From an uncultured Candidatus Saccharibacteria bacterium (GTDB lineage: Bacteria; Patescibacteriota; Doudnabacteria; UBA920), in contig CAYYWQ010000001.1 of the NCBI GenBank assembly GCA_964474825.1, forward strand, positions 229,609 through 293,608: a stretch of DNA of 64,000 nucleotides, read 5' to 3'. Shown in pieces: positions 3,437 to 25,182 of this stretch. Below the pieces are notes generated by a model, which saw only the letters and a program-made list of their open reading frames with translations, ran no database searches and had not been told where the DNA came from. Positions within the stretch are counted from its first letter, which is position 1; each line of letters starts with the position of its first letter. Made by a program: the position numbers and the translations under genes.

Positions 3437-3437
3437 T

Positions 3438-3812: not shown

Positions 3813-3833
3813 ACAAAAATTAAAATTGTATTT

Positions 3834-4673: not shown

Positions 4674-6630
4674 ACTTCAAAAATTAGTCGCTTGTTCTTT
4701 ACTCGCCATACAACTTTTAATGTTGCCTGGTTTGGCTTTGGCCCAAATAGGGGACGTGCCTACGAGCAACAGCGCTTTGGGTCTTGGGGGTATTGGGGGT
4801 TACACCGCAAATAGCTTAGCGACAGGCATCCTGGAAGGCGCTAATAAATCCAACTCTGCTTGCCTGGTGCCGGAGAAAGCTTTTTTTGCCGGAGATAAAG
4901 GGGTTTCAATAGGCATGGGAGGACTGGCCCTTATTAGCGGAGGCGCGAGCGTTCAAGAACAGTTAATTGCAAAAATTACCAAAATAGAAGGGTTTAAAGG
5001 TTGCCATGGAGCGCAATTGGAAATAGTTAAAGCTGTTCTTGCGCCTAATACTTTTATTTCCAACAGGAAGCAATTGTTAATTGACGAAATTACCAAGCAA
5101 ATTATGAGCCTGGAGGCCCGGGAAGAACCGCTTCTAAATCAGCTTAAGGTTGCGCAGCAGGGTTTTTGGAAAACTTTGGTTTGGAATGTTTTAATAAAAA
5201 CCACCAAAACCATTTCCATTAACATGGTTAATAAAATGGTAAAAAATTATAAAATAAATAATTTTTCCAAATATGCGGACGCAGTTGCCACCCAGGTTTA
5301 TGACAGCGAATTTATTTTAGACAACTTTAGCGGCGCTAAAGCCGACCAAATGCTTGTCAGATCATTTTTGGCAAACCCAGCCCTTCAGGGACAAATGTCA
5401 CCCTCGGTACTTCGCTATACCAACAACGCTTTGGGTTTTGACCCTAAACAGCTTAATACAAATGACCCGAATTTTTACCAGAAAATGTATTCAGCAGGCA
5501 CCGGCGGAAGTAATCCTTTTGTCCAGCAAATTGCTTTTGCCAATTCCGCTCAAATGATCCATTCCAAGTCTTTAGTCACTGCCCAGGCGGAAATTGCCCA
5601 AAGCAGCGGTCTTAAGACTCCTCGCAACTGCCAAGGGGTAATGTCCCAACAAAAATCTTTGGACCAGTCATATAAATTGGTAGACAACCAATTGGCCAAC
5701 CGCCAGGCTTTGTTTGATGATTTAGTTAACGCTAAAAAAATGGGTTATCCGGTAACCGACAGCGACCTGTCCAAAGCGCAAACTGATTTGGCTAAAGCCC
5801 AGAACCAATGGGACGCTTTGCCTAATTCCGTGGAAAGCCCTATTGTAAAAATTTGTGAAGGCATTGTTTCTCCTCCAAGTTTAATTAACAAAGGCATTGA
5901 CCAGGCCTTTAACGCCCTTGGACAGAATGTAGGCACTTACAATAATAATAACTTACCATTCTTTATAACCTTTATTACTGACGTAGCCAATAAAATTACC
6001 AATGACATGATTTTTGGCGGCGGCGTTAGCGGTTCCAGTATTTTGCAGGAAAACATTGGCAACCTTTCCCGGGCAACCAGCTTGGTAACCAGTGGGGTTC
6101 AGGCCAATTTGGAAGTTACTCAAGGTAAAAATATTACAATAACATCAAGTTTGGACGATGTAAGCAGCGACGGCAAGTCCGCTACCTTTAGCCTGCAGTG
6201 GGATGCCAGCGGCGTTGGAAACGCTACAGCCATTTCTATTAGCGGACCCGGTGTCCCGGCAAATATCAACGGAGCCATGCAGCCAAAGTTAAGTGGGGCT
6301 GTGGCAATAACTGTCGCGGTGGGAGCACAGTATACTTATACTGTGACTGCCTACGGCAAAAGTAAAGCCGATGTTTTGGCAACTTTAACCAAGAAAGTGG
6401 ACGCTACCCGCACTGCCGTAACACCTCCACCTCCGGTGACAACTCCTCCTGCCGCCGCAACGGTTCAGTGTGAGGAAGAGTACGGCAGTCTAGATGCTTG
6501 CATAGAGCATCCCGGTAACGACCCAGCTTGGTGTGCTTCTATTTGCGGCAGCGTTAACGGCGCATTCATTTCCAAAGCGCCGTTAAGCACCCGAGGTCCT
6601 ATGTCAGAGCTCCATCCAAGAGGGGAGTAA
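4660..6630 (+). CDS. hypothetical large secreted protein (656 aa)
   Basis: clear signal peptide ...LLMLPGLALAQ; overlaps upstream gene by 14 nt; Pro-rich segment then Cys-containing C-terminal tail. Confidence 0.55.
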   Translation: MHSNKLQKLVACSLLAIQLLMLPGLALAQIGDVPTSNSALGLGGIGGYTANSLATGILEGANKSNSACLVPEKAFFAGDKGVSIGMGGLALISGGASVQEQLIAKITKIEGFKGCHGAQLEIVKAVLAPNTFISNRKQLLIDEITKQIMSLEAREEPLLNQLKVAQQGFWKTLVWNVLIKTTKTISINMVNKMVKNYKINNFSKYADAVATQVYDSEFILDNFSGAKADQMLVRSFLANPALQGQMSPSVLRYTNNALGFDPKQLNTNDPNFYQKMYSAGTGGSNPFVQQIAFANSAQMIHSKSLVTAQAEIAQSSGLKTPRNCQGVMSQQKSLDQSYKLVDNQLANRQALFDDLVNAKKMGYPVTDSDLSKAQTDLAKAQNQWDALPNSVESPIVKICEGIVSPPSLINKGIDQAFNALGQNVGTYNNNNLPFFITFITDVANKITNDMIFGGGVSGSSILQENIGNLSRATSLVTSGVQANLEVTQGKNITITSSLDDVSSDGKSATFSLQWDASGVGNATAISISGPGVPANINGAMQPKLSGAVAITVAVGAQYTYTVTAYGKSKADVLATLTKKVDATRTAVTPPPPVTTPPAAATVQCEEEYGSLDACIEHPGNDPAWCASICGSVNGAFISKAPLSTRGPMSELHPRGE

Positions 6631-6825: not shown

Positions 6826-7350
6826 ATGTCAAAAAAATACGGAACCCTGTCGGGAGAATTTTTAAAAATTTTGGGTAAGGCGACCGGATTTTTTACCTGG
6901 CCCATTGAAGGGACTGAAGGTTGGCGCTACGAACAACTATATGGTTCCAGAAGGAATTTTTTGAACACAGTCTCGCATTTAAAAAAGCGAGGGATGGTTA
7001 AATCAGTCAGCCGTCAAGGTAAAAATTTTTTGGAATTAACTTCCAAAGGACAATTGGAACTTCTTTTGCAAAAAGCTGTTGTTAAAACAGTGGCTAAGTG
7101 GGACGGTAAATGGAGAATGGTTATTTTTGACATTCCCGAAGATGCCAGGGACAAAAGGGATACCTTAAGGAGACTTTTAAAAACCAATCAATTTGTAATG
7201 TTGCAGGCCAGCGTGTTTGTTAGTCCCTTTCCTCTTAACAGGGAAGCCGTGGATTATTTAAAGCAAACAGGGCTAATTGCTTTTATAAGATTTGGAAAAA
7301 TTGAAGAACTTGATGATGATCGTGATTTAAGGAAAAAATTCAAGTTGTAA
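6826..7350 (+). CDS. PaaX-like (PaaX_C-type) small transcriptional regulator
   Basis: WDGKWRMVIFDIPEDARDKRDTLRRLLKTNQFVMLQASVFVSPFP resembles PaaX family central/C-terminal region; 174 aa. Confidence 0.45.
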   Translation: MSKKYGTLSGEFLKILGKATGFFTWPIEGTEGWRYEQLYGSRRNFLNTVSHLKKRGMVKSVSRQGKNFLELTSKGQLELLLQKAVVKTVAKWDGKWRMVIFDIPEDARDKRDTLRRLLKTNQFVMLQASVFVSPFPLNREAVDYLKQTGLIAFIRFGKIEELDDDRDLRKKFKL

Positions 7351-7364
7351 ATATTAAGTCATAG

Positions 7365-7388
7365 CCAAACTGACGGCCGTCAGTTTGG
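7365..7388. promoter_or_regulatory. 24-bp perfect palindrome downstream of PaaX-like gene / upstream of VirB6-like operon
   Basis: ccaaactgacgg|ccgtcagtttgg; same 18-bp core as 6768-6805. Confidence 0.55.
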
Positions 7389-7630: not shown

Positions 7631-10600
7631 TTGCGGAAATTAAAACAAAAATTTAAAACTTCTGTTTTTAGCCTGGTTTTGATTATCATCCTGCTTTCCG
7701 GTCTTGGTGGTTTTTTTGTTTATCCCAAAACTGCAAAAGCCGCAGGGAATGTTTATAATTTCAGCGATATTGTGCTTACAGAAACTGTTGAGGTTTCCAA
7801 TAACCAAAACGGACCTTGGAATAACGTAAATTTTGTACGGGTAGGAAAAGACTCTAATTTTTACGTGAAAGTTACAATTCAGGTGGCTTCTTTGAAGAAT
7901 ACAAACAATCAGGTTGTAACCAGCTTTGATACAAAAAATGACTCGGTGTTTAATCCCGGTTGGTACAACACCAATTTTTCGATTAGTGGAGTAGGGTCAA
8001 GTTTTGTGGCTAAGGTTACCCAGGAACAAGCCGCGGCAATTAAGCAAAAAATAGAAGCAGGAGCTGATCCTAAAACCGTTGGGGGAATCCCTTGTTTTAA
8101 AGAAAGTATGACCAGCGGTGGAGGGGCGGCTTTAAACGGTGTGGTAATTGTAGGGGCGAGTGCGGCGGTGGCCTTGACTGGTGGGGCGGCTTTAAGCGCC
8201 GGAGCCCTGGCTGTTGGAGGTAGTGCTGTTGGTACTGCTGCAGGTGCTGCTGTGCAGAATGTGGCACTTTTTATAGCTATAAACGGCAGTACAGTTGCTG
8301 GCGGCAGTACAGCAGCAACGCTTGCTACTTTTAGGCCTGCTGCGGCATCCGATTATATAAAGTGCGACGGCCCAATTGGAGGCAGTAATCAACCCGGACC
8401 TCAAAGTCCGGGTGCTGTTCCGGTCGGTGGCACTTTATTTTCTAGCACTGTTACCGTTCCCGCGACTGCGTATGCGAATTTGGGACTTTCACAGCAGGCG
8501 GACGCAACAAAAGAATCCAGCACTCAGCCGGTGAATGAATTTTTTGTGGTACCGAACGTTTATTTTTCATCCTGGTTGGGGGTGAGGAATGACTTTATGT
8601 CAACCATTGGAGCAGGGAAGAGTATTTACGTCCAGCTTTATGATACTCAGGAGAATGCGAATAAACACGCAAGCGAAGCAGTGCCGTCTTCGGTTCCAAA
8701 TAACGGGAGCAACACCGGAAGCGGTACTAATCTTGGCGATGGAGGAAGCGGACTTCTTGGTTTGATTAACAAAATTATTGGAATTATTGTTGGTATTCTT
8801 TCTGAGCTGGCCTACTTAATATTTTACACACTGCTGGCGCCAATGATCCAGGCCATGCTTTCCATTCATACATACTCCGACACTTTTGTCGGGGTAATTT
8901 ATCCTGCCTGGATTGTAGTGCGCAATGTTTGCAATATTATTTTTATTGTCGCCATTATTGCCATAGCCATGGGTACGCTTTTCCGCGTGGAAAGTTACCA
9001 GTATAAGCACCTGTTAGTGCAGTTAATTATTGCCGCCCTGCTTGTGAATTTTAGTTTGGTTATTGGCCAGGCGATTTTAGGGATTGCGGACACCGCGCAG
9101 AACCAGTTTTTACCCAACAATGTGGAAGTTGTTCGCTCCCTTGGAAAGAATTTAATGGTGCAGTATCGCCCCGACGTCTGGAATATGGATTTCGCCGGGC
9201 ACGGTTATTTTAGCGACACTGTAAAGCAGTTGTTCTTTTTAGCTATGTCCTTGGGAAGCTTGGCGGTGTTTGCGGCCATAGCGGTATTTTTGGTTATTAG
9301 GATTGTGGCCTTGTGGATATTCCTTATGATTTCCCCCATAGCTTACGTGGCAGGAGTATTGCCCACTACCGCCAAATATAGGTCTGAATGGTGGAGTAAT
9401 TTTATTAAGTATGCTTTTTTTACGCCCATTATGGCGTTCATGCTTAACATTGCAGCTTACATTGCCAATATGCAGACCAACAATGGCGTGCTTAATTATC
9501 TTAAGGTGGACCCGAGTACTTTAGGCGGTAGTAATTTTGCCTCTTTTGTGGTACAAATTTCCAGTAATGTAATTTTATTGGTCTTCCTCTTTGCCGCCAC
9601 AATGGTAGCGGAAAAAATGGGCATCTACGGCGGCGACATAGTCTCTAAAGTTGGCAAACAAGGTTTGCTTGCGCCTTTTGCTGGCGCCAAGTTTTTGACT
9701 AAAGACGTTGCTGGGGGATGGGTAAAGAAGCATTACGATAAAAAGACTGAAGGTCTCGCAAGCGGGAAAATATTACCAGGACTTTTTGGAGACAAAGGAG
9801 GTCAGTGGCTTTCCCGACAGCTTTTTAAAGTTGCTCACCCTATTACCACTGTTGGAAAAATAAGGGAAGAAAGCAAGGAAGAGAGAGAGTTATATAAAGC
9901 ACGCGTGGAGGCAGCGGCAGTAAAAGTTGCCAGAAAACAGTTTGGTTGGAGAAGAATGACAGAAGACCCGATGTATCTTTTTGATGAACATAAAGGAAAG
10001 GAACTTTATGAAAAAGAAGAAGGTCAATGGTCGCCTAATGAACAAGTCAATGTGGGTAAAATAAATAGGCTGGCCGAAGAATCTAAAAAAGGGGACTTAC
10101 GTGCTCGTGTAAAGCTTAAATTTGCCTTGGCAGAAGCTTTTAGAAACAGGAACCTGAACGAAGTTATGGGAGGGGAGAATGGATTAGCTGCTAGGAATCC
10201 AGAATTATTTGGAGGCCCTCTTAATTATAATGCAGACAATATAAGGTTTTTTTTCCAGCAAATGACCGAAGGCGGTTATTTAGACGAAGATTTTACAAGG
10301 GAATTTTTAAAAGACATCGGTAGAGATGCATATGAGAAAGGTGACTTCAATGGAGCCGAGCTCGTTTACAGCGACCCAAAAACAGGCCATCCTCATATGA
10401 TTCACATGGCTCCGCGGGACGAGGAGGGAAATTCTTTACCTGTCGGCTGGAATGATTATGTACAAAAAAGAGAAGAATTTATTAGAGATGCTGATGCGAT
10501 CGGTAAACGAAATGCTGTTACCGTAGGTAAAGCAAAAGCTGTCACAAAAGCCACTAAAAATCTTGGTCCTGGGGCAACTCCAGCCCAAATTGCCGCAGAA

Positions 10601-11260
10601 GCTGCAATTCTTGAAGCAGACGAAATAGAAAGAGCGACGGGTCCGGAAATAGCAAAAGCACTTAAGGCCTTGGAAGATCCGTACGCTGAAAGTAATCATG
10701 ATTATGCGAATTCAATGCATGCGGAACGTGGTAGGAATTATATGAAGATTAACCTGTCAAAGAAAAAAGGTGGTCAGCAAATGGATATGTTCCATGACTC
10801 TCTTATTAACGTTGGAGTAGAAGATGGAGAAGCTGTTTTAAGTGATGCGGGTACCCAAGCATTAGGTAAAATTGACGAGCAGTCAATCTACGCTTTGCTT
10901 AGGGACAACATGGCTCCCAAAACTAAAGATAAGTTTAAGCTTTATACCAAAGGGATTGCAGTCAATGAGGCAAAAACTATTGCAAAAATTCAAAATCAGT
11001 TAACTAAGGTGGTAAGAGATGAGAACCGCGAAAAAGGAGTATTTATGACAGACCCCGAGATTGCCAAGCAGGTGGAATCAAGAACAAATTTATGGCTTGC
11101 TGCTTCGGCAGGTTTGGCTTCTGGTGAGCAGGCTCAAACTGTCATGCGAGCATTTGAACTTAAAACAGATCCTAATACTAATATTACAGAAACTTTAGCA
11201 GAAAGGGATTTAAGAGTTAGGGCAGAGTTGATTAAAAAGATTAAAGACAGTCAAAAGTAA
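7631..11260 (+). CDS. VirB6/TrbL-like polytopic membrane protein with Gly/Ala-rich extracytoplasmic region and ~500-aa charged C-terminal domain
   Basis: TTG start; signal/TM; 6-7 TM helices between aa ~380-690; organisation resembles VirB6/TrbL giant variants. Confidence 0.5.
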   Translation: MRKLKQKFKTSVFSLVLIIILLSGLGGFFVYPKTAKAAGNVYNFSDIVLTETVEVSNNQNGPWNNVNFVRVGKDSNFYVKVTIQVASLKNTNNQVVTSFDTKNDSVFNPGWYNTNFSISGVGSSFVAKVTQEQAAAIKQKIEAGADPKTVGGIPCFKESMTSGGGAALNGVVIVGASAAVALTGGAALSAGALAVGGSAVGTAAGAAVQNVALFIAINGSTVAGGSTAATLATFRPAAASDYIKCDGPIGGSNQPGPQSPGAVPVGGTLFSSTVTVPATAYANLGLSQQADATKESSTQPVNEFFVVPNVYFSSWLGVRNDFMSTIGAGKSIYVQLYDTQENANKHASEAVPSSVPNNGSNTGSGTNLGDGGSGLLGLINKIIGIIVGILSELAYLIFYTLLAPMIQAMLSIHTYSDTFVGVIYPAWIVVRNVCNIIFIVAIIAIAMGTLFRVESYQYKHLLVQLIIAALLVNFSLVIGQAILGIADTAQNQFLPNNVEVVRSLGKNLMVQYRPDVWNMDFAGHGYFSDTVKQLFFLAMSLGSLAVFAAIAVFLVIRIVALWIFLMISPIAYVAGVLPTTAKYRSEWWSNFIKYAFFTPIMAFMLNIAAYIANMQTNNGVLNYLKVDPSTLGGSNFASFVVQISSNVILLVFLFAATMVAEKMGIYGGDIVSKVGKQGLLAPFAGAKFLTKDVAGGWVKKHYDKKTEGLASGKILPGLFGDKGGQWLSRQLFKVAHPITTVGKIREESKEERELYKARVEAAAVKVARKQFGWRRMTEDPMYLFDEHKGKELYEKEEGQWSPNEQVNVGKINRLAEESKKGDLRARVKLKFALAEAFRNRNLNEVMGGENGLAARNPELFGGPLNYNADNIRFFFQQMTEGGYLDEDFTREFLKDIGRDAYEKGDFNGAELVYSDPKTGHPHMIHMAPRDEEGNSLPVGWNDYVQKREEFIRDADAIGKRNAVTVGKAKAVTKATKNLGPGATPAQIAAEAAILEADEIERATGPEIAKALKALEDPYAESNHDYANSMHAERGRNYMKINLSKKKGGQQMDMFHDSLINVGVEDGEAVLSDAGTQALGKIDEQSIYALLRDNMAPKTKDKFKLYTKGIAVNEAKTIAKIQNQLTKVVRDENREKGVFMTDPEIAKQVESRTNLWLAASAGLASGEQAQTVMRAFELKTDPNTNITETLAERDLRVRAELIKKIKDSQK

Positions 11261-11289
11261 AAATAAAAAGTTTTTAAATTTTAGTTAAA

Positions 11290-12447
11290 ATGACCCTTGA
11301 AGAAGTAAAAGAAATAATAACCAATTCCAAATTTAATCCTGATTTAAAGCAGAGGATGGTTTTATTTTTGCCCAGGCTAGGTAAAAATTCTTTAGAGAGT
11401 TTAGGAAAGGAAGTGAGTAGGGGAGATTCGGTAATAATTGCGGAATATTTAACATCTTTATGGGAAAGCTTTGCGAATTTTTTGGACGGGCTTAAAAATA
11501 AAGACCAGAATGCGTTAAGAGACCTGTCGGAATTCTTTGCAAAAAGACTCTCAAGATTTAATGACGAAGATGAATTTTACACATTAGGCTTTGTGTTGGA
11601 CGTACGCGCTATTGGCCGAAGAGCTCAGACTCAGCTTAGCGCTGAGCAAAATAAGAAGTTGCTTGATTTTGAAATCAGAATGTTTTGGGATTTACCCAAA
11701 GAAGAGGTGCTTTATTTGCTGCGTAATAATATTTTGTATTTACTGGAAAAAATTAATCTTTTAGAGTATACCCGGGCAGCAATTTATAAAAATAATTGGG
11801 ATGAGGGTGATACGTTCAATCAACTATTCCTAGACGCATTGCTACAGAATAAAGAAATGCTAGGGAGCGGGGAATCCAAACCTGTTGGGGTATGGATTAA
11901 GGATTTTTTAAGTTTTTCTGTGCCCACACATTCTCAAGCCAGCACTTTTGGGGTTGCCGAGTTTTTGTTAAGAGGTCCTTCAATCAAAGAGCTTTCTAAA
12001 ATCGAAAAAGAAGGGTTGGCGGAAATTTTAAATTTATTTGTTTGGCTAACAGAGCCAATTATAGTTGTAGACGAAGTTCGCAAATTTATTGAAAAAACCA
12101 AAGAAGCACAGTCTGAGGAAGTGACGCCGAGTAGCTTTCAGAATACCCAAAGGTTTACTTTGCCACCCGAACTTTTAAATGCTAGTAAGCCTATTGTAAA
12201 ACCAGCAGCTCCTCCTTTAGTGCCCGCGCCGGGTAACCAGCCGGTGGCAAAAAAAGTGCAAATGGGGGAGATATCACAGCCGCAACAGATGGTCCAGCCT
12301 GAGAGGCCAACCAAAACAACAGTAAACTATATTACCCAGAAGCCCACGCAAAACCAGCAGCCAACTAAGGCTGAAAAGTATTTACAGCAGGAAATAGACA
12401 GGAAGCTACATAAACTAGAAGAAAAAACAAAGGGGAGTAAGAAGTAG
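11290..12447 (+). CDS. hypothetical protein (385 aa), P/Q-rich C-terminus
   Basis: ORF in tight operon spacing (29 nt gap); no TM; no recognisable family. Confidence 0.5.
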   Translation: MTLEEVKEIITNSKFNPDLKQRMVLFLPRLGKNSLESLGKEVSRGDSVIIAEYLTSLWESFANFLDGLKNKDQNALRDLSEFFAKRLSRFNDEDEFYTLGFVLDVRAIGRRAQTQLSAEQNKKLLDFEIRMFWDLPKEEVLYLLRNNILYLLEKINLLEYTRAAIYKNNWDEGDTFNQLFLDALLQNKEMLGSGESKPVGVWIKDFLSFSVPTHSQASTFGVAEFLLRGPSIKELSKIEKEGLAEILNLFVWLTEPIIVVDEVRKFIEKTKEAQSEEVTPSSFQNTQRFTLPPELLNASKPIVKPAAPPLVPAPGNQPVAKKVQMGEISQPQQMVQPERPTKTTVNYITQKPTQNQQPTKAEKYLQQEIDRKLHKLEEKTKGSKK

Positions 12448-12470
12448 ATAGTAGCTAGAATAAAGAGAAT

Positions 12471-13898
12471 ATGGAAAACGAACATCAACAAAAAATTCAA
12501 AATTTGGTTAAGGTCTCCTCTATATTAGTAGAGGCGGAAAAGAATGAGTGGTTGGAGTTAATGGATTTAATGAATGACCGCCAGCTTTTGGAATTGGAAA
12601 GAATTTTGCAGGATTCGGGCAACAACCAAAAAGCCGTGGTTGCAAAAGAAGGGGAAAAGCCCTCCCAGGTGCAATCTTTGAAAAGCAAGCCCATAGAAAC
12701 CCAACCAGTTAAAAATCCTGCCACCTCCCCTTTTAGCCATATTTTAAATTTCCCCAAAGCTCCGGGCGCGCAGCCTCTTCCTCCAATAAAGCCTTTGCCA
12801 ATAGTCCAGGCTAAGGTGGAGAGCAGGATTGTTGAGCCCAAAAAACAGTCGCCATTTTTGGCAAAACTAAAAAATATTTTTACGGAAAAAGAGTTGCCGG
12901 CTCCGCACCAGGGCGCTTTGTCAGACCATAGTGTGGTTAAGGATTTACCGGTTAAAGCTAAGCCTGTTCCGCCAAAGCCGCAGCCACATCATTTAAAACT
13001 GAAAGAACAGCTAAAGAAGCCGGTGGAGGAAGCTCCAAAGCCAAAATTGCCTGAGCCTGTCAAAAAGCCGGTAGAAGAACCTGTTTTGCCAAAAGCACCC
13101 CAGCAGCCCGAGCCAAAAAAACCGGAAAATGTAACCATAAATGTTTTTCTTAATGACCAAACAAAACAAGGGCAGGGTTTGGGCGTTGCCCAGGCCCAAA
13201 GCGCGCTAGAGCAAGTGTCTGCCGCCGGTCTGCCTACGGGCGGGAAGCCGGATGAGCTTAGCCAGCAAATTGCCGAGTCTATGTCCGCGGCGGTTCCACC
13301 CCAGGCAAAACAAAGTGTTCCTTCAAAGTCTACTCCGGCTCGTCCGTCCGATCCTGAGGTTGCCAATAATCACGCTAAAAGCGGTTGGGGACAAACAGAA
13401 GAAGGTCTAATAAATTCAAACCGCAATAAAGAAAATGTTAAAGCGGCTGTGGCTGCCGCTGTTAGCACAGTAGCTTATGGCTTAAATTTTCCTGAAGGTT
13501 CCAGTGCCGAAGCTTTAAAAAGCAGGTTAACAGGTACGAGTCAGCAATCTATTGGCGGCAAGGCTGCCCCGGCCCCTGCAGGGACAAAAATTGTGCTCCA
13601 AGAAAAGCCCGGAGACAATATAAAGCTTGAGACTTTGGCAGATATAGATGTTTTAAAGCCTGACGACCTCAAACAACACGCTACCGGCACAATGTTCCGC
13701 AAGCTCCAAAAGCTTGTGTCGGTGAACGGCCTGCACGAAGTGGTGCGCCATATGGAAATTAGTCCTTTGTACAAAGCCTATATAGAAACCGGGGTCGCGT
13801 TATTAAAAGAAGATGCCAACCGTAAGTCCGCGCCTCTTACCAGCAGCGATTTTGAACGCTTTGTAGACCTTCTTATTATGATGAGATCTAAATCTTAA
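12471..13898 (+). CDS. hypothetical protein with proline-rich KKPVEE(A/P)... repeats
   Basis: internal repeats KKPVEEAPKPKLPEP / KKPVEEPVLPKAP; 23 nt gap from upstream gene. Confidence 0.5.
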   Translation: MENEHQQKIQNLVKVSSILVEAEKNEWLELMDLMNDRQLLELERILQDSGNNQKAVVAKEGEKPSQVQSLKSKPIETQPVKNPATSPFSHILNFPKAPGAQPLPPIKPLPIVQAKVESRIVEPKKQSPFLAKLKNIFTEKELPAPHQGALSDHSVVKDLPVKAKPVPPKPQPHHLKLKEQLKKPVEEAPKPKLPEPVKKPVEEPVLPKAPQQPEPKKPENVTINVFLNDQTKQGQGLGVAQAQSALEQVSAAGLPTGGKPDELSQQIAESMSAAVPPQAKQSVPSKSTPARPSDPEVANNHAKSGWGQTEEGLINSNRNKENVKAAVAAAVSTVAYGLNFPEGSSAEALKSRLTGTSQQSIGGKAAPAPAGTKIVLQEKPGDNIKLETLADIDVLKPDDLKQHATGTMFRKLQKLVSVNGLHEVVRHMEISPLYKAYIETGVALLKEDANRKSAPLTSSDFERFVDLLIMMRSKS

Positions 13899-13926
13899 GG
13901 TTTCTATGGTATAATTAATCTATTAT

Positions 13927-14367
13927 ATGCAATTTTCCGTACCACAATTTACTGAGGTAGAAGATAAAATAATTGGCCCGCTGACTATTAAGCAGTTTGG
14001 TATTATTTTTGGCGGCGGAGTTTTCGTGTTTATTGCTTTCACTCTTACAAAGAGCATGGCAGTCTTAATTATTTCCGGTTTGTTTTTTGGCTTGCCTACC
14101 TTAGGCTTAGCTTTTGGCAAACTAAACGGCAGGCCGATTTATAACATGCTAGGTAATTTGTTGGCATTTATTACCAGTCCTAAGGTTTTAATTTTCCATA
14201 AACAGGGAGTGCTAGCATCAGACAATAAGCAGAAAGACGAGGCGCTGGGAGCAAAAACAGCTGCCGATGTTAACATGAGCACTGCCGCCACCTCGCGTCA
14301 AAGACTTACCGAAGTCAATAAACTATTAGAAAAACAGGCGGCTGAGGAGAGGGAATTATTGAAATGA
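13927..14367 (+). CDS. VirB3/PrgI-like small two-TM membrane protein
   Basis: 146 aa, two adjacent TM helices (GIIFGGGVFVFIAFTL / AVLIISGLFFGLPTLGLAF); position just upstream of VirB4. Confidence 0.4.
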   Translation: MQFSVPQFTEVEDKIIGPLTIKQFGIIFGGGVFVFIAFTLTKSMAVLIISGLFFGLPTLGLAFGKLNGRPIYNMLGNLLAFITSPKVLIFHKQGVLASDNKQKDEALGAKTAADVNMSTAATSRQRLTEVNKLLEKQAAEERELLK

Positions 14368-14452
14368 GCATTTAGTAGTTAGTATATAGCAGTTAGGTTT
14401 GTTAATCCCTACCTGCTAAATGCTATTTGCTACAAGCTAAGAGCTAATACCT

Positions 14453-15136
14453 ATGAAATTAGAAATGCAGGAAAAATCCACAACAACGGCAAAGTCCACA
14501 CAAAGCTTTTTGCCTATTAGTGAAATAAAAAATGACGTGGTCGTTTTAAACAACGGCACTTTGCGCGCGATTTTGGCGGTATCCAGCACTAATTTTGACT
14601 TAAAAAGTCAGGATGAACAAAATGCCATTATTTATAATTTCCAGCGTTTTTTGAATTCTTTGGAATTTTCAGTGCAAATTTTAATGCAAAGCCGGAAAAT
14701 GGAAATTGGCACTTATTTGGAAAAGCTAAAAGGGATTGCCGAAAAACAGACAAATGAGCTGCTTAGGGTCCAGACTTTGGAATATGTGGAATTTATTAGC
14801 CGGCTTATAGAAAACGCCAGTATTATGAACAAGAATTTTTACGTTATTGTCCCGTTAGACGAAAGTATAACGCCCCAGGCGGCCGGATTTTTTAGCCGGA
14901 TTTTTGGGGGAGGTAAAACCAAGGAATTAAAGCAAAAAGTTGAAAATTTTGAAAAACTTAAAGAGAAGCTCGATAACCGGATTTCTGCGGTTAGTTCCAA
15001 TCTTTCCAGTATTGGCCTGCAATCTTCGCCGCTTAAAACAGAGGCTATTATTCAGCTCTATTACAACTCCTACAATTTTGACGCCGCTCCAACACTAGAC
15101 CCGAATAAATTAAAAGAAATGAAAATAGCGCAGTAA
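14453..15136 (+). CDS. VirB4/TrbE N-terminal domain-like protein (possible detached N-terminal part of VirB4)
   Basis: LNNGTLRAILAVSSTNFDLKSQDEQNAIIYNFQRFLNSLEFSVQI matches the CagE/TrbE/VirB4 N-terminal pattern; in frame with the next ORF, separated only by TAA TAA TTT. Confidence 0.45.
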   Translation: MKLEMQEKSTTTAKSTQSFLPISEIKNDVVVLNNGTLRAILAVSSTNFDLKSQDEQNAIIYNFQRFLNSLEFSVQILMQSRKMEIGTYLEKLKGIAEKQTNELLRVQTLEYVEFISRLIENASIMNKNFYVIVPLDESITPQAAGFFSRIFGGGKTKELKQKVENFEKLKEKLDNRISAVSSNLSSIGLQSSPLKTEAIIQLYYNSYNFDAAPTLDPNKLKEMKIAQ

Positions 15137-15142
15137 TAATTT

Positions 15143-16987
15143 ATGTCAATTTTTAAAATAAAAACCGAAAAAGAACTGGAAGAAAAAAAATCCATGCTCC
15201 AGGAGGCGGAGCAGGAGCGTGATTTAAGCAAGAAAATTACCGATGTTGAAAAGACTTACCGTGAGGGTCTTACAACCTTGAAAGATTTAATTGCCCCGGC
15301 GAGTCTGAAGTTTGAAAGCTCTTATTTTGAATTAAACGGCAAGTTTGCACGAAGCTTCTTTGTTTTGGCATACCCCAGGTTCCTTTCCAGTAACTGGCTG
15401 TCTTTTATTATACAGGCCGAAGGCGCTCTGGATTTGTCCATGTATATTTATCCAATAGACTCCGAAACAATTTTAAAAAAGTTAAAATCTAAAGTCGGGG
15501 AGCTGGGCAGCCAAATGTCCATTAACCAGGAAAAAGGTGGCGTACGTGACCCAATGCTGGAAACGGCCTATAAAGACGTGGAAGGTTTACGGGACCAGCT
15601 TATGCAAGGTACTGAGCGTTATTTCCGTTTTGCCCTGTATTTTACTATTTACGCGGACGACTTAAAGGAATTAGACAAGAACTCTTCCACTTTGGAATCC
15701 GCTTTGGGCGCTAAACTTATTGTTACCAAGCGGGCAATAATGCAGACCCAGCAGGGTTTTAATTCCACTTTGCCTTTTGGTAAAGACGAGCTGGATGTTG
15801 GTAACAACATGAACACCAGTCCGCTGTCTACATGTTTTCCTTTTGTTTCCTCTGACTTAACGGGTAACGATGGTATTTTATATGGCATTAACCGCCACAA
15901 CAACAGTTTAATTCTGTTTGACAGGTTTGCCATGGAAAATGCCAACTCCGTAATTTTTGCCAAATCCGGCGCCGGGAAATCTTACGCGGTTAAACTGGAA
16001 GTACTGCGGCATTTAATGATAGGCACGGACGTGGTAATTATAGACCCGGAAAACGAATACAAACATTTGGCCGATGCCGTGGGTGGCACGTACTTGAGCG
16101 TTTCGTTAAATTCCAATTCCCGTATTAACCCGTTCGATTTGCCCGTTGCAATAGAAGGGGAAGACAATGCTGATGTTTTGCGCTCGTCGGTAGTTAACTT
16201 GCTTGGTTTGTTCAGTTTAATGCTCGGCAAGTTAAACCCAACGGAAGAAGCTTTAATGGACAAGGCCATTTGGCAGACTTATGCCAAAAAAGACATTACC
16301 GCGCAATCGGATTTTAAAACCGTAGAATATCCGACAATGAACGATTTAATAGAAATCCTGCATGGTATGGTGGGCGCGGAAAGTTTGGCTCAAAGGTTGA
16401 CTAAATATACCGAAGGAACTTTTGCCGGGTTATTTAACCAGCCAACCAATGTGGTTTTAAATAATCAGTTGGTGGTTTTTTCCATCCGAGATTTGGAAGA
16501 TGAATTGCGGCCCATTGCAATGTATATTATTTTAAACCATATTTGGAACATTGTGCGCAGTGAGCTAAAAAAACGCATTTTGGTGGTTGACGAAGCCTGG
16601 ATTATGATGCAGCACGAAGACAGCGCGCGGTTTTTATTTGGTATTGCCAAACGCGGGCGCAAGTATTATTTAGGTCTTACCACGGTAACCCAGGACGTTG
16701 CCGACTTTATGGCCAGTCCATACGGCAAGCCTATTGTAACCAACTCTTCCATCCAGCTGTTGTTAAAACAATCGCCGGCGGCTATAAATATTATTGCCGA
16801 CACCTTTTTCTTAACAGAAGGTGAAAAATATTTGCTTTTGGAAAGCGAAGTTGGGGAAGGTATTTTTTTTGCCGGGCTTAAGCACGCGGCAATTAAAATA
16901 TATGCATCTTATGTGGAAGACCAAATTATTACCACCGACCCAAAACAGCTTTTGGAAATTCAGGAAAGCCAGGAAAAATTAAGCTAA
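15143..16987 (+). CDS. VirB4/TrbE/CagE-family T4SS ATPase
   Basis: Walker A FAKSGAGKSYAV, Walker B ILVVDEAWIMM, conserved RKYYLGLTTVTQDVADF block. Confidence 0.85.
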   Translation: MSIFKIKTEKELEEKKSMLQEAEQERDLSKKITDVEKTYREGLTTLKDLIAPASLKFESSYFELNGKFARSFFVLAYPRFLSSNWLSFIIQAEGALDLSMYIYPIDSETILKKLKSKVGELGSQMSINQEKGGVRDPMLETAYKDVEGLRDQLMQGTERYFRFALYFTIYADDLKELDKNSSTLESALGAKLIVTKRAIMQTQQGFNSTLPFGKDELDVGNNMNTSPLSTCFPFVSSDLTGNDGILYGINRHNNSLILFDRFAMENANSVIFAKSGAGKSYAVKLEVLRHLMIGTDVVIIDPENEYKHLADAVGGTYLSVSLNSNSRINPFDLPVAIEGEDNADVLRSSVVNLLGLFSLMLGKLNPTEEALMDKAIWQTYAKKDITAQSDFKTVEYPTMNDLIEILHGMVGAESLAQRLTKYTEGTFAGLFNQPTNVVLNNQLVVFSIRDLEDELRPIAMYIILNHIWNIVRSELKKRILVVDEAWIMMQHEDSARFLFGIAKRGRKYYLGLTTVTQDVADFMASPYGKPIVTNSSIQLLLKQSPAAINIIADTFFLTEGEKYLLLESEVGEGIFFAGLKHAAIKIYASYVEDQIITTDPKQLLEIQESQEKLS

Positions 16988-17070
16988 CGATTAACGATTG
17001 ACAATTAACAATTAACTTCTGATTTTGGGGTTAAACGTTAATCGTGAATTGTTAATTGTTTTTTTATTTT
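16988..17070 (+). terminator. hairpin/heptad-repeat structure with T-run after VirB4
   Basis: AACGATT/AACAATT heptad repeats and inverted GTTAATC/GTTAATT copies followed by ttttttatttt. Confidence 0.4.
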
Positions 17071-19641
17071 ATGGCGGACGATAATAAAAATTCGACGGCA
17101 GCTTCCGCTGATCCCACGGCGAGTACGGGAAGCAGTAGTGATACCAGGCCGAGGGGTGTAACTAACGGCATAAATTTGCCCGCCAGGTTTGATGTTAGGG
17201 GCCGTAACGTATCCATAAATACAGCCCACATTAACCGTGTTTTTGTTAATGTAAGACAAAGCTCTCTTTCCATAAGAACCAATGACCAAGTTTCTTTTGA
17301 AGGAATTGGTTTGCGGCCTTATACACACATAGTTTTCGCAACAAAATCCGAAGGGCAGCCCCTTATTCCCCCTGTTCAAAAAAGCTCCGAGAGCAGCGAT
17401 GTTCAGCTGATTTTTGAAATTCCGAAAATAAATTACGATGGTCTAATAGAAATAGAAATTATCAGCAATTCTGATTCGGATTACGATAAGGCAATTAACA
17501 GCCCTTCTTTTGCTTATTTTAATAACGAGGAAGAGGATGAAAAAAATAAATCTAAAACTTCAAAGGAGACTGAAGAGGAAAGAATAAGAAGCGAAAATGA
17601 AAAGTCCCATCTTATTTCCGATTTGGTTAATGCGCCTTTGGGAGTTATTGGGGCGGCGTTTGGGGGCGCAAAAGGAACAGGCTCAAGCGCTCAGACGGGA
17701 AATAAAAAACCAGCGACTGCATCCGCTGTAACGCCCGTTAAACAGGAGGCTAATGAAGATTTTGATACGCAAGAAGAGTCCCAGGTACAAACATCCAGTG
17801 TTGTTTTAACGGAAAATGAACAACAGGCCGCGGAACTGGTTGGTGAATATATAGACAAAAATCCTGAAGTAATTAGTGACGTTAGAATTCGCAATGAAAT
17901 TTTAGGGACTTTGGGGAGCGGCCAGCAAGGCCAGGTGGATTTGTCACAACTTAGCGGAGAGGCGCGGCAAACTCTGCAGACAACAGTCGCGCAGTCTGTA
18001 AAATCTCAAACCGGCCAGGGAGCACAAAGGCTTCAGGAGGCTTATGGGCAACTGGAACAAAAAATCCAAGTTCAAGGCGGAGGCGGCGGAGGTTCTGTTA
18101 CTGCCAGCACGCAGGTGCAAGCGCAAGGCGGAGGCAGCGGGCAGGTAAGTGGAGAAGTCAAAGCTGAATCAAAGTCGGCCGCAGAAATAAAAGCTAAAAC
18201 ATCGACAGAGGCTAAAGTTTCTGGGCAAATGCAAGGACAGGCGCAAGCCTCTTTCGGTGGCGTTGCCCCTTCAGCTGCCACGGCTGAGGTTTCCGCCCAA
18301 GGGACGCAGCCGGCAAAAACCAGCCCTGTCCAGCGGCAAAATATGGAAGTGGTGGGGGAGTATTTAGACAAAAATCCAAATAAAATTTCAAGTGCAGATT
18401 CAGGGACAAGGAACAGGATTATACAGGCCTTGGCTTCGGGAAATACCGACAGCTTAAATAAAAACGACCAAGAAGTTTTAAAGAAAACTTTAAATGCGCT
18501 GGGCCAAGACAGTTTGGCTCCGGCTGCTGTTAGATTGGCCGCAGATAATTTATCTGAAGGCGAAAAGCAGCCCTCTACCGAGCCTGTAAAAACCGCTACG
18601 GGTTCACAGCAGGAAAATCTTGCCGGAGGCGCTGGTAAGCCTTTGGATTCTGCCGGTCCAAAAAATGAAGCGGAAGAAGTGGGGCGGCCCCCTAAGGAAG
18701 CTTTAGAAATATTAAACAGACTAAAAAAAGAAGAAAAACCTTTGCCTCCGGGCGTGGTTGCTCCTCCAAAGCGTGGGGCTTCCGCAATTTCCGACCGGGC
18801 AGGGTTGGGAGGGCCATTAAAAAATGGCAGTGATATTAATGGACAGACGGAAGGGGTGTCGCCAGCTAAAAATTTGCCTGCTGTTACGGAGCCTAGAACA
18901 GGAGCCGGGGAAGGCGGGGAGCCTACAAGCAATGTTAATTCCACTCAGCTGCCTAAGTCTACAGAGCAAAATCCACCAACCGAACGGCCTAATGAGGAGG
19001 CTCCGGAAGGCGGTGCGCCGGACTCAGGAATGCCTCCCGTAAACCCGAAGGCCAGCCCAACTGCGCCGGTTTCTGATCCCACCAAAACAGATGAGCCGGA
19101 ATCTGATTCTTCCACACCCGCGCTCCCTGCCGCGGCCGCAACCGGGGCTGCAAATACCGCATTAGGCAATAAAATCTATAAAGAGGTAGGTGAAGTTGCT
19201 TCCAGTCAAATTTGGTATTTTGGTTTTTCAAGCTCCTGTCTTACGCTTTTTTCCGGCTTTGATTTTATGCTTGGCGGCATTGTAATGGCGGCGTATTGGA
19301 TTTTTGGGCACAGGAAAAATAAAGAACTGTTTCCATTAAAACGGTGGCAAAAAGCCGTAACCATTTTAGCCTTTATTTTACCAATTGTGTATTTGGTTGT
19401 TACAATAGAATTAATTATTTACGTTGGCTGCAATAGCCCCGTAGAATATAATGCAATCAGTAAATACAAACTTACGTATATTGGTTCTGTGTATCCGGAT
19501 GTTTGCGAAAGTATGGGGGCGGCTACGAATACAGGGGTCGGCGCCGGTGGGGGTACTCCAACTTTAAATCCCTCGGCCCCTCCAGCCGCTGCTCCGGCTG
19601 TCCCTCCTGCAGCCCTACAACCGCGTGGCTCCAGCCAGTAA
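17071..19641 (+). CDS. hypothetical large Q/G/A-rich protein with C-terminal TM segments and Pro/Ala tail
   Basis: ATG at 17071 (ORF track uses TTG 17056); internal repeat VGEYIDKNPEVIS / VGEYLDKNPNKIS; two hydrophobic helices near C-terminus. Confidence 0.5.
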   Translation: MADDNKNSTAASADPTASTGSSSDTRPRGVTNGINLPARFDVRGRNVSINTAHINRVFVNVRQSSLSIRTNDQVSFEGIGLRPYTHIVFATKSEGQPLIPPVQKSSESSDVQLIFEIPKINYDGLIEIEIISNSDSDYDKAINSPSFAYFNNEEEDEKNKSKTSKETEEERIRSENEKSHLISDLVNAPLGVIGAAFGGAKGTGSSAQTGNKKPATASAVTPVKQEANEDFDTQEESQVQTSSVVLTENEQQAAELVGEYIDKNPEVISDVRIRNEILGTLGSGQQGQVDLSQLSGEARQTLQTTVAQSVKSQTGQGAQRLQEAYGQLEQKIQVQGGGGGGSVTASTQVQAQGGGSGQVSGEVKAESKSAAEIKAKTSTEAKVSGQMQGQAQASFGGVAPSAATAEVSAQGTQPAKTSPVQRQNMEVVGEYLDKNPNKISSADSGTRNRIIQALASGNTDSLNKNDQEVLKKTLNALGQDSLAPAAVRLAADNLSEGEKQPSTEPVKTATGSQQENLAGGAGKPLDSAGPKNEAEEVGRPPKEALEILNRLKKEEKPLPPGVVAPPKRGASAISDRAGLGGPLKNGSDINGQTEGVSPAKNLPAVTEPRTGAGEGGEPTSNVNSTQLPKSTEQNPPTERPNEEAPEGGAPDSGMPPVNPKASPTAPVSDPTKTDEPESDSSTPALPAAAATGAANTALGNKIYKEVGEVASSQIWYFGFSSSCLTLFSGFDFMLGGIVMAAYWIFGHRKNKELFPLKRWQKAVTILAFILPIVYLVVTIELIIYVGCNSPVEYNAISKYKLTYIGSVYPDVCESMGAATNTGVGAGGGTPTLNPSAPPAAAPAVPPAALQPRGSSQ

Positions 19642-19721
19642 GGCCTCAATTTTGAGCCCTGAAATTTTTATGCTATAATAAATCCATATAAAAAAGTTTA
19701 GGGAAACCAAAACAAATATTT

Positions 19722-20864
19722 ATGAATAAAAAAGCTATTGCTATTTTGGGCGCCATTTTTCTCTTAATTGTGGGGACACTGGGATTTTTAATATACTCCA
19801 AATATGGAACTAAAAAAACACCCGAAGTTGTTGTGAATGTACCAAACAACGGCGGTGGTGATCCAACGCCCTCTGTAACTCCTACTCCTGAGCCAACAGT
19901 TGCGGCTTCGGGGGCTAATAAATTATTAGACGGCCCAATAGTATCTCCGGCTTTGTTTTATAACGGTCAGGGAGTCACATATTTTGACGCAGCCGGCCAG
20001 CTCTACCAGGTTAATATTCAGCAGGGGAATGGACAACCCCAGGCGTCTTCACCGCAGCCTTTAGGTATTCAAACCAAAGCAAATATTACCAAGGTTATTT
20101 GGCCCCCCCTTGGAGATGATTTTATTACTGAGTCCGTTAGCGGTTCTCAGAAATCCTGGAGTTTTTATAACAGCAAGTCCAGAATTTACCAGGACATACC
20201 AAGCCAGGTTGTGGCTTTTGACTGGCTTCCTTCGGGACAGCAGGTTTATTATATTTGGGTGGAAAACGGCAAGGCGGCTTTAAATGTAGGTGATCCCAAC
20301 ACTCAAAATTGGAAATACATTGCTGATATGTGGGAGACAGACGATGTAATTAGTGTTTCCCCTGACGGGAAAAACATCCTTTATTATGAACAGAATACAG
20401 CTACCAGCACTAACCCAATTAACTGGTTAACTTCGGACGGGAAGCTCTGGAAAACTTTGGTTAGCACGGGAATAAATTATGGCGTACTATGGAGCCCGGA
20501 CAGCCAGAAGTTTTTGTTTGGTAAAAAAGATTCCACGGGGACCACTTACCAATTGTGGTTTTATAATTTACTGACCGGAGAAGTAGGGAATACAAAACTA
20601 AACGCGACCGTGGAGAAGGCGGTGTGGAGCAAGGACAGCCAGACAATTTATGCGGCAGTGCCAAATAGCGGCGATGCCGGAAACGGTGGCCTGACAGCTG
20701 ACATGTTTAATAAATTTAACATTGCCACCGGAGACAAAAAACAATATGACGCCGGTGCCCAGGTAATTGACGGTGAAAATTTGTTTTTAAGCAGTGATGA
20801 ATCCCTATTGTTGTTTAAAAATGCCCAGGATGGTGGTTTGTACTATTTGAACTTAAACCAGTAA
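19722..20864 (+). CDS. membrane-anchored TolB-like / PD40 beta-propeller protein
   Basis: N-terminal TM; repeated SPDGK / WSPDSQ / WSKDSQ beta-propeller motifs. Confidence 0.5.
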   Translation: MNKKAIAILGAIFLLIVGTLGFLIYSKYGTKKTPEVVVNVPNNGGGDPTPSVTPTPEPTVAASGANKLLDGPIVSPALFYNGQGVTYFDAAGQLYQVNIQQGNGQPQASSPQPLGIQTKANITKVIWPPLGDDFITESVSGSQKSWSFYNSKSRIYQDIPSQVVAFDWLPSGQQVYYIWVENGKAALNVGDPNTQNWKYIADMWETDDVISVSPDGKNILYYEQNTATSTNPINWLTSDGKLWKTLVSTGINYGVLWSPDSQKFLFGKKDSTGTTYQLWFYNLLTGEVGNTKLNATVEKAVWSKDSQTIYAAVPNSGDAGNGGLTADMFNKFNIATGDKKQYDAGAQVIDGENLFLSSDESLLLFKNAQDGGLYYLNLNQ

Positions 20865-20942
20865 AAGTATATAGTAGTTAGTAGATAGCCTATTGTGGTT
20901 AGATTTTCTAACTACTATTTGCTAAATACTAACTACTTTTTT

Positions 20943-25105: not shown

Positions 25106-25182
25106 TGGTGCACCCGGCAGGGATCGAACCTGCGACCTTTCCCTTCGGAGGGGAACGCTCTTATCCACTGAGCTACGGATGC
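25106..25182 (-). tRNA. tRNA-Arg (anticodon CCG), CCA encoded
   Basis: minus-strand sequence GCATCCGTAGCTCAGTGGATAGAGCG-TTCCC-CTCCGAA-GGGAA-...GGTTCGATCC...GGGTGCACCA folds as cloverleaf, 7-bp acceptor stem. Confidence 0.85.

Follow-up and report, generated by a model that had tools for sequence, protein, structure and literature searches.

This study concerns a 64-kb stretch (64,000 nucleotides (nt), hereafter the window) of contig CAYYWQ010000001.1, from an organism deposited as an uncultured Candidatus Saccharibacteria bacterium. Between positions 7631 and 20864, the window carries eight open reading frames (ORFs), all on the + strand, which encode components of a chromosomal type IV secretion system (T4SS). 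A preliminary description, made from the DNA letters and the list of ORFs, had delineated the same eight co-directional genes with gaps of 6-85 nt; the coordinates and the spacing hold, the successive gaps being 29, 23, 28, 85, 6, 68, and 80 nt. The eight ORFs, designated O1 to O8, are the following (aa, amino acids):

7631-11260, + strand: O1, 1209 aa, "extended" VirB6-like polytopic membrane protein
11290-12447, + strand: O2, 385 aa, cytoplasmic-looking, lineage-specific protein
12471-13898, + strand: O3, 475 aa, cytoplasmic-looking, lineage-specific protein
13927-14367, + strand: O4, 146 aa, PrgI/VirB3-like protein
14453-15136, + strand: O5, 227 aa, TrsD/TraD-like protein, detached N-terminal part of VirB4
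15143-16987, + strand: O6, 614 aa, VirB4 ATPase
17056-19641 as listed (TTG start), likelier 17071-19641 (ATG start), + strand: O7, 861 aa, protein in the VirB1 (PrgK/TraG) position
19722-20864, + strand: O8, 380 aa, TolB-like PD40 β-propeller

The relatives mentioned below come from a one-genome-per-species scan that returned 332 of them; titles were read for the best 80, and gene presence was counted over 84 loci (designated by L-numbers).

The core of the system is formed by O6, O5, and O4. O6 scores 369.7 bits against the NCBIfam conju_CD1110 VirB4 model (cutoff 325) and also matches the Pfam families P-loop_TraG (2.8e-26), AAA_10, and CagE_TrbE_VirB; both Walker motifs are legible, A as AKSGAGKS and B as ILVVDEAW. 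These profiles place it among the VirB4 ATPases of the Firmicutes/Actinobacteria type (mating-pair formation class FATA, MPF-FATA), and it is the predicted motor of the system. At least 8000 VirB4 homologues are found in the database; the best 120 are 84-94% identical to O6, and those among them with a named source are from the Patescibacteria group or Candidatus Doudnabacteria. O5, located 6 nt upstream of virB4, matches TrsD/TraD at an expectation value (E) of 1.5e-8, its homologues carry the PF26593 TraC-like family, and it is conserved in 80 relatives at a median identity of 59%. On conju_CD1110 it covers positions 3-139, and on the mycoplasma VirB4 model VirB4_plasma 95-233; O6 covers the complementary positions 172-728 and 287-893 of the same two models. 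O5 is assigned on these matches to TrsD, the split-off N-terminal part of VirB4. Longer VirB4 forms of the database (700-800 aa) were considered as TrsD-VirB4 fusions and rejected, their extensions being unrelated to TrsD. O4 reaches 36.6 bits against PF12666 PrgI (gathering score 27), possesses two hydrophobic helices at about aa 19-56, and has a homologue in 74 of the 84 relatives. It is a PrgI/VirB3-like protein with two transmembrane helices and the expected membrane anchor of VirB4. All three proteins had been named correctly in the preliminary description, as a VirB4/TrbE ATPase, a split VirB4 N-domain, and a two-helix VirB3-like protein, and the profile searches bear these names out.

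O1 starts with a signal peptide, followed by a variable Gly/Ala-rich ectodomain that reaches about aa 390, then a helical membrane core (about aa 395-680), and finally a charged tail of ~500 aa, presumably cytoplasmic. A sub-threshold match to TrbL (E 1e-3) spans aa 466-614. A word-indexed protein search with the membrane core yielded 13 proteins, and the core (aa 370-710) was modelled from a 14-sequence alignment, with a predicted local distance difference test score (pLDDT) of 71 and a predicted TM-score (pTM) of 0.64. When this model is compared with the PDB using Foldseek, TrwI/VirB6 chains of the R388 T4SS stalk (PDB 7o3v, 8rt9, and 8rtd) occupy ranks 1-7 and 10, with E-values of 9e-3 to 0.5, probabilities of up to 1.0, and TM-scores of up to 0.45 (query-normalised) or 0.55 (target-normalised). 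VirB6 is the best match of the core model by two methods, with scores that are individually modest. Judging by this predicted structure, O1 is counted as possessing the VirB6 fold, in keeping with the VirB6/TrbL-like label it had received earlier. It differs from TrwI/VirB6 of R388 in several respects: sequence identity is only 11-14%, O1 is about four times longer, with its large ectodomain and its tail, and no VirB5 partner is detectable. In 41 O1 homologues, conservation is limited to the membrane core, while the ectodomain and the tail vary freely; O1 may therefore be termed an "extended VirB6" in the sense of PMC12857230. Comparison of its profile with PDB sequences returned low-complexity noise only, the profiles of O1, O2, and O3 giving TolA, stathmin, and E2 linkers.

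O7 consists of a long Q/G/S/P-rich N-terminal region devoid of a signal peptide, a transmembrane hairpin at about aa 715-830 (numbered from the start at 17056), and, at its end, a Pro/Ala tail, as in the proteins of L009, L013, and L051. It matches no family in Pfam, NCBIfam, or PHROGs. Its position is informative: in 69 of the 72 relatives in which both flanking genes were located, the product of the gene separating virB4 from that of the propeller is 137-1218 aa long, lacks an N-terminal signal, and nearly always ends in a C-terminal cluster of hydrophobic helices. The C-termini of this family (alignment A1) display a conserved hairpin (helix, Trp/Lys loop, helix) followed by two conserved cysteines. 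In many relatives an extra domain follows the hairpin, identified by Pfam as SLT_3, SLT (lytic transglycosylase), or Peptidase_M15/VanY. Since proteins at the same position end in such hydrolase domains, O7 is assigned to the VirB1 (PrgK/TraG/TrsG) position, in a hydrolase-less form: neither SLT nor M15 is detected in O7, and iterative searches seeded with the relatives' hydrolase domains match no ORF of the window.

Among the 79 loci with a gene at the O7 position, 28 carry a hydrolase domain (SLT_3 in 13, SLT in 12, and M15 in 3) and 51 carry none. The type of hydrolase co-varies with a small gene located downstream of the O7-position gene. The SLT type is accompanied, in 11-12 relatives, by an N-anchored protein of ~185 aa with weak matches to VirB8, NTF2_YvbJ, and TcpC (E 0.02-0.07), and the SLT_3 type by a protein of ~150 aa. 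In four relatives a DsbA-like thioredoxin gene stands between the VirB1-position and propeller genes (L032, 14022-14798; L035, 11836-12597; L036, 13862-14680; L078, 14605-15420), an arrangement in keeping with the extracellular cysteine pairs that are conserved in the O7 hairpin and in the secreted protein u4 (see below). The 80-nt gap between O7 and O8 in the window harbors no counterpart of the ~185-aa VirB8-like, ~150-aa, or DsbA-like genes. The census shows a wall-hydrolase module that is either exchanged (SLT_3, SLT, or M15) or lost along with the small gene accompanying it; it helps to tell the core from the accessory parts and flags lineage-specific surface partners.

These absences raise the question of whether the locus is a decaying, non-functional copy, the missing hydrolase domain, VirB8-like gene, and pilins being signs of erosion. 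The closest relative (L005, 93% VirB4 identity) bears SLT_3 on its O7 counterpart, and the window has neither the small VirB8-like gene nor a detectable pilin. Yet each of the eight ORFs is intact, VirB4 shows 93-94% identity to that of the nearest relatives and retains its Walker motifs, and the 51 hydrolase-less loci indicate that this form is a stable state; decay is very unlikely.

The remaining proteins of the cluster are more lineage-specific. O8 matches PD40 (4.5e-6) and propeller_TolB (1.8e-5), and a profile built from 41 homologues matches TolB crystal structures at E 1.9e-12. It is a TolB-like PD40 propeller with an N-terminal membrane anchor, as proposed before, and is presumably exposed on the cell surface. 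Homologues are present in 75 of the 84 relatives at a median identity of 44% over the full length, always after the VirB4/O7 genes. A metagenome scan with the O8 profile gave one true orthologue, with the same neighbours; the other matches are generic PD40 proteins without T4SS neighbours.

O2 begins with a helical N-terminal domain of ~270 aa, from which a linker rich in Pro and Gln leads to a short C-terminal helix that is conserved (IDxKLxELxKR). Homologues occur in only 13-19 of the 84 relatives, at 20-45% identity (median 28%), always between the VirB6 gene and O3. O3 displays a conserved N-terminal helical motif of ~46 aa, a long variable Pro-rich linker, and a conserved C-terminal domain of ~90 aa; it is present in 58-63 relatives, in which the two ends alone are conserved. 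When 1.84 billion cluster representatives were scanned exhaustively with HMMER, only 215 relatives of O3 came out at E≤1e-3, and O3 is therefore lineage-restricted. Neither O2 nor O3 matches a Pfam, NCBIfam, or PHROG family or, by profile, a PDB sequence, and neither possesses a hydrophobic anchor. A paralogous relationship between the two is not demonstrable (hhalign probability 3.4%, with a faint similarity of the N-terminal motifs only). The preliminary description had counted five proteins of no recognisable family and many novel partners. This is still true of the lineage-specific O2 and O3, which remain unmatched, and O8 is lineage-specific as well; O5 has become TrsD-like, O8 PD40/TolB-like, and O7 the VirB1-position member of a family that includes SLT and M15 proteins.

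Upstream of the VirB6 gene, two further features have to be considered:

4660-6630, + strand: u4, 656 aa, secreted protein, candidate accessory component
6826-7350, + strand: PaaX-like regulator, between u4 and the VirB6 gene

u4 possesses a signal peptide, long helices, an immunoglobulin (Ig)-like β-sandwich (about aa 493-581), and a Cys-rich tail, and matches no Pfam, NCBIfam, or PHROG family. It lies upstream of the VirB6 gene in 25 relatives, with a gap of about 200-250 nt in the three that were checked individually (L009, L017, and L029), and a protein search identified 22 more homologues at 33-58% identity. A concatenated u4, O2, and O3 protein query retrieved u4 homologues only. Its AlphaFold2 model is of low confidence (pLDDT 63.6, pTM 0.30), and the Foldseek matches are generic Ig-like domains only, which does not support an assignment as a VirB5-like protein or an adhesin. 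By synteny alone, u4 is a candidate member of the system, and we infer the roles of O2, O3, O8, and u4 from their positions only. Further upstream, at 2432-4673, three more co-directional genes encode secreted or membrane proteins without known family (one Cys-rich, of 334 aa; one of 124 aa, rich in Gly/Pro/Val and bearing a signal peptide; and one of 279 aa, N-anchored and helical). The gene for the last of these adjoins u4 also in L009, and the three may belong to the same surface gene block as u4.

The PaaX-like protein matches PaaX_M (4.1e-21) and TIGR02277 PaaX (8.6e-10) and contains a Cas2-like middle domain; a perfect 12-nt palindrome (7365-7388) lies 3' of its gene. Only three relatives (L021, L051, and L080) have such a gene at this position. 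It may regulate the T4SS locus and is probably not a structural part of it.

The relatives define both the lineage and the setting of the cluster. Among the titles of the best 80 relatives, those naming a group below Patescibacteria read Candidatus Doudnabacteria (~20) or "uncultured Candidatus Saccharibacteria" (~50 TPA_asm entries), the latter being, by assumption, a default label. The nearest relatives are all Patescibacteria, most of them with the label Candidatus Doudnabacteria, in line with the resemblance noted earlier to systems from the Candidate Phyla Radiation (CPR)/Patescibacteria. A common gene order, u4 - VirB6 - O2 - O3 - PrgI - TrsD - VirB4 - O7 - (small gene) - PD40 - radA - recG (- strand) - 157-aa membrane protein (- strand), is conserved in more than 50 species-level loci, which answers the synteny comparison suggested at the outset. 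Median identity to the relatives decreases from VirB4 (78%) to TrsD (59%), PrgI (46%), PD40 (44%), and VirB6 (39%, core only); for O3 (35%) and O7 (34%), short pieces only align. An outlier, L082 (63% identical), keeps only VirB6, PrgI, TrsD, and VirB4. In the close relatives L001, L002, and L003, small PDDEXK_3 and 23S_rRNA_IVP (four-helix-bundle) genes are found between the T4SS genes (L001, 6090-6512 and 8731-9153); they look like small selfish or mobile insertions in an otherwise fixed operon, and none is present in the window.

The remainder of the window is ordinary chromosome, with uvrD, ksgA, dksA, an extracytoplasmic function (ECF) sigma pair, comF, clpB, recX, htpX, lemA, secA, and gatCAB, together with miaA, holB, frr, rseP, an aminoacyl-tRNA synthetase gene, mreBC, and the genes for PBP2, folD, nusG, and ribosomal proteins. 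Given the conserved synteny and these housekeeping flanks, the T4SS locus is a fixed, inherited chromosomal system and not a mobile element. No type IV coupling protein (T4CP), VirB11, relaxase, integrase, or pilin family is found among the scanned ORFs of the 64-kb window, in agreement with the earlier remark that VirD4, VirB11, relaxase, and pilin are missing and that this is not a classical conjugation module. For the pilins, the T4SS_pilin/TrbC families (PF18895 and PF04956) give no match at E≤1 in the small membrane ORFs of the window (3438-3812, 25217-25798, 41799-42176, and 60829-61071) or in the O7 hairpin.

It might be objected that the cluster is the transfer module, or a remnant, of an integrated conjugative element whose relaxase and coupling protein lie elsewhere. 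The VirB4, TrsD, and PrgI families indeed stem from Gram-positive conjugative elements, T4CP genes are often far from virB4, and VirD4 homologues occur in many Patescibacteria genomes (PMC12102498). An element of this kind would be expected to show a relaxase and T4CP, an integrase, variable presence, and foreign composition; within the 64 kb none of the three genes is found, identical core genes flank the locus in more than 50 species, and its GC content (0.39-0.49) is like that of the surroundings. Furthermore, the nearest relatives of VirB4 track taxonomy, and relaxases occur in only 103 of 3,035 Patescibacteria genomes (PMC12102498), making this explanation extremely improbable.

The system itself is not new: it belongs with the published Patescibacteria T4SS (PMC10633639, PMC12102498, PMC12857230). 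Wang et al. (2023) demonstrated that "Ca. Southlakia epibionticum" requires its T4SS in order to grow as an epibiont (PMC10633639). That system resembles Gram-positive conjugative T4SSs, its cluster has no recognisable coupling protein or relaxase, its pilins are essential, and protein export or another role has been proposed for it (PMC10633639). Quinonero-Coronel et al. (2025) reported VirB4 in 2,417 of 3,035 Patescibacteria genomes, 2,425 VirB4 proteins from 2,407 assemblies forming a monophyletic clade nested in MPF-FATA (PMC12102498). In the same survey, TrsD, PrgI/VirB3, and VirB6 usually adjoin virB4, VirB8 is nearly confined to the class ABY1, and VirB2-like pilins near virB4 are common without being universal (1,135 of 1,948 pilin-bearing assemblies) (PMC12102498). 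A 2025 FEMS review calls these systems "newcomers" to the superfamily (PMC12857230), and a 2026 preprint describes T4SS-pilus-like tubes at the parasite-host interface (bioRxiv 10.64898/2026.06.21.733656). The window shares with this clade the FATA-type VirB4, the adjoining TrsD-like and PrgI genes, the VirB6-like protein, the absence of a nearby relaxase, and the chromosomal location; VirB2-like pilins near virB4 are not found in its 64 kb. Of the minimal set of monoderms (VirB1, VirB3, VirB4, VirB6, VirB8, and VirD4), a VirB1-type hydrolase and a VirB8/NTF2-like bitopic protein are likewise missing from it.

A closer comparison can be made with three known systems. In Southlakia ML1 (SEML1_0006-0019; Saccharimonadia), the order given in the published tables is VirB6 - NTF2-like - VirB6-like - PrgI - (TrsD-like) - VirB4 - 1113-aa hypothetical protein - lysozyme (PMC10633639). 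The core order is the same, from VirB6 through PrgI, TrsD-like protein, and VirB4 to a large uncharacterised protein and, in Southlakia, a hydrolase; both loci are chromosomal, possess an MPF-FATA-type VirB4, and have no relaxase or coupling protein gene. Southlakia possesses, in contrast, a VirB2-like pilin array (PF18895/PF04956), a lysozyme/peptidase, and an NTF2/VirB8-like gene, all absent from the window, which has only one VirB6-like gene. What the window has in addition is a propeller (PD40/TolB), a pair of Pro-rich cytoplasmic proteins, and radA, recG, and comF in the neighbourhood. The Trs system of pGO1/pSK41 and the Tra system of pIP501, from Gram-positive cocci, belong to the MPF-FATA subclass with the arrangement TrsC-TrsD-TrsE or TraC-TraD-TraE; they show the same succession of a small VirB3-like protein, TrsD/TraD (homologous to the N-terminus of VirB4), VirB4, and the TrsG/TraG position, that of a wall hydrolase anchored in the membrane, a likeness supported by the NCBIfam TrsD/TraD and CD1110 VirB4 matches. 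They are plasmid-borne and equipped with a relaxase, a T4CP (TrsK/TraJ), a VirB8-like protein (TraM/TraH), and an active hydrolase (in part after PMC12102498), and none of these genes is seen in the window. Finally, ComB of Helicobacter pylori and Ced of Sulfolobales are also powered by a VirB4 and free of relaxase and T4CP, and a functional analogy is possible given the recombination genes nearby. ComB includes VirB2, 7, 8, 9, and 10 and functions across an outer membrane, and Ced uses CedA/CedB; no ComB or Ced component is detected in the window, a CedB match of 46.7 bits (cutoff 700) reflecting generic VirB4 homology.

With respect to this literature, the present locus brings a modest addition: the modular and often absent hydrolase of the VirB1-position protein and the small partner gene that co-varies with it, the propeller and the Pro-rich proteins as lineage-specific parts, and fold-level support for VirB6. 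A PD40 or TolB partner is not mentioned in the main text of PMC12102498.

Taken as a whole, the locus is likely (with a probability of roughly 75%) to be a vertically inherited chromosomal Patescibacteria T4SS, descended from the monoderm MPF-FATA conjugation machinery and acting at host contact rather than in plasmid-style conjugation. Its nearest relatives being labelled Candidatus Doudnabacteria, it may be viewed as a trimmed, Doudnabacteria-like version of this system. Contact-dependent transport at the interface with the host bacterium is the most likely function, by analogy with Southlakia. A working scheme can be drawn from R388 and Gram-positive T4SSs as reviewed in PMC12857230. PrgI/VirB3 and TrsD would hold hexamers of VirB4 against an oligomer of VirB6 in the single membrane; assembly and the passage of substrates would be powered by the hydrolysis of ATP. 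The O7 hairpin, the O8 propeller, and u4 would form or decorate the extracellular part, these surface proteins might extend across the wall and the partner cell or hold on to them, and the machine would move protein or other macromolecules upon contact with the host bacterium.

Several points weigh against this interpretation. The VirB6 assignment derives from a model of medium confidence and from Foldseek E-values that are weak (about 1e-2), even though chains of VirB6 come out on top by both methods. Transport at host contact is suggested by analogy. Three features of the essential Saccharibacteria system, namely the VirB2-like pilins, the wall hydrolase, and the NTF2/VirB8-like protein, are absent from the window, so that the system may work differently or use genes located elsewhere in the 1.2-Mb genome. 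The place of O6 inside the published Patescibacteria VirB4 clade, lastly, is deduced from its nearest neighbours.

The Patescibacteria, which are dependent on host cells, account for a large part of the diversity of bacteria, and theirs is the only T4SS known to be essential to its own bearer. The locus offers a clean natural "minimal" version of it, with VirB6, VirB3, TrsD, VirB4, a hairpin protein, and a propeller, and without pilins, hydrolase, or VirB8.

Two hairpins bear on the transcription of the cluster and on its relation to the recombination genes that follow it:

16986-17071, + strand: AT-rich hairpin and U-run, directly 3' of virB4
20866-20942, + strand: hairpin and U-run, between O8 and radA

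The first folds over 16986-17060, contains the inverted repeat pairs I5 and I6, and is followed by the U-run UUUUUUUAUUUU. Its folding free energy (dG) is -28.1 kcal/mol (z -6.9), and none of 200 shuffled sequences folds as well. Its appearance suggests an intrinsic terminator, an attenuator, or an RNA-stability element. A consensus terminator scan reported nothing after virB4, as the AT-rich hairpin falls outside its GC-biased rule. The second (20866-20938, then the U-run) has arms of 31 nt (pair I1), a dG of -31.7 kcal/mol, and a z of -5.6; it is as strong as the first and looks like the 3' boundary of the cluster. A weaker hairpin (14373-14431) separates O4 from O5. The terminator announced after VirB4 in the preliminary description is thus real, and it is not the only one. 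In view of these hairpins, the ATG at 17071 is the probable start of O7, and the ATG near 20943 that of radA, and the second hairpin makes it probable that radA is not co-transcribed with the cluster. As a separate observation, AT-rich intergenic hairpins (14373-14431, 20866-20938, and scattered sites) carry a common motif, TAGTAGTTAG, which occurs 12 times in the window with at most one mismatch (2.4 expected; none of 100 shuffles reaches 12) and may be a repetitive extragenic palindrome (REP)-like element or a lineage-typical terminator.

The gene radA (TIGR00416, 552 bits) directly follows the cluster in 67 of the 84 relatives, and recG is found nearby in 57. With comF (29816-30580, - strand) and recX (33358-33876), located 9 and 12.5 kb from the cluster, these genes had been seen as fitting a DNA-uptake theme. 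The cluster could accordingly be read as a DNA-uptake or exchange machine similar to ComB or Ced, passing environmental or host DNA to ComF, RadA, RecG, and RecX. All four genes are confirmed, with comF and recX within 13 kb of the cluster; comF, recG, and radA are also found near the T4SS in class ABY1, where functional coordination has been suggested (PMC12102498), and the absence of relaxase and T4CP is equally typical of ComB. Since a 2026 taxonomy table places Doudnabacteria apart from ABY1 (PMC13293708), this neighbourhood is seen here, going by the Doudnabacteria labels of the relatives, in a second lineage. The theme rests, however, on gene neighbourhood, and the strong terminator-like hairpin sets radA apart, recG is on the opposite strand, and a sigma/anti-sigma pair, tRNAs, and a foreign-looking GC-rich gene lie between the cluster and comF/recX. 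All four are universal housekeeping genes, for which stable synteny alone is a sufficient explanation, and the CedB match is generic. In the genetically tractable Southlakia, moreover, competence is lost together with comEC and viability is unchanged, whereas the T4SS proved essential (PMC12857230). A role in DNA uptake is rather unlikely.

A more ambitious proposal goes further and sees in the locus a distinct, stripped-down T4SS sub-architecture devoid of pilin, VirB8, and hydrolase. Its envelope part would be built from the propeller, the O7 hairpin with its huge disordered arm, and u4, with O2 and O3 as cytoplasmic adaptors, and it would import host nucleic acid to be processed by RadA, RecG, and ComF. 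We regard this combination as distinctly doubtful; if true, it would constitute a T4SS-based nucleic-acid acquisition device in a monoderm. An inherited Patescibacteria T4SS acting at host contact remains the preferred interpretation.

The chromosome downstream of the cluster offers some additional observations. A gene for a DksA/TraR-type zinc-finger protein (22465-22842, - strand) is located between radA and recG. Next to recG, tRNA-Arg(ccg) (25106-25182) and tRNA-Ser(tga) (25715-25804) flank the ORF of a conserved two-helix membrane protein (25217-25798, - strand), which is found 3' of recG in 42-46 relatives. As listed, this ORF overlaps tRNA-Ser, and its homologues are about 157 aa long; its true start therefore lies further in. 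An ECF-type sigma factor gene is paired with that of a DUF5667/DUF5666 membrane protein, likely the anti-sigma factor (26046-27834, - strand). Beyond it, an island of ~1.3 kb (28300-29650) has a GC content of 0.59-0.63, against about 0.42 around it, and looks horizontally acquired. It holds the gene of a 413-aa AP_endonuc_2/xylose-isomerase-like TIM-barrel protein (28382-29623, - strand), beside tRNA-Ser(gct) (28091-28182). Finally, a PEP-CTERM sorting motif (E 1.6e-5) forms the end of a 202-aa secreted protein (43789-44397, - strand). As PEP-CTERM/exosortase systems typically belong to diderms, this motif is unexpected in a presumed monoderm CPR genome.

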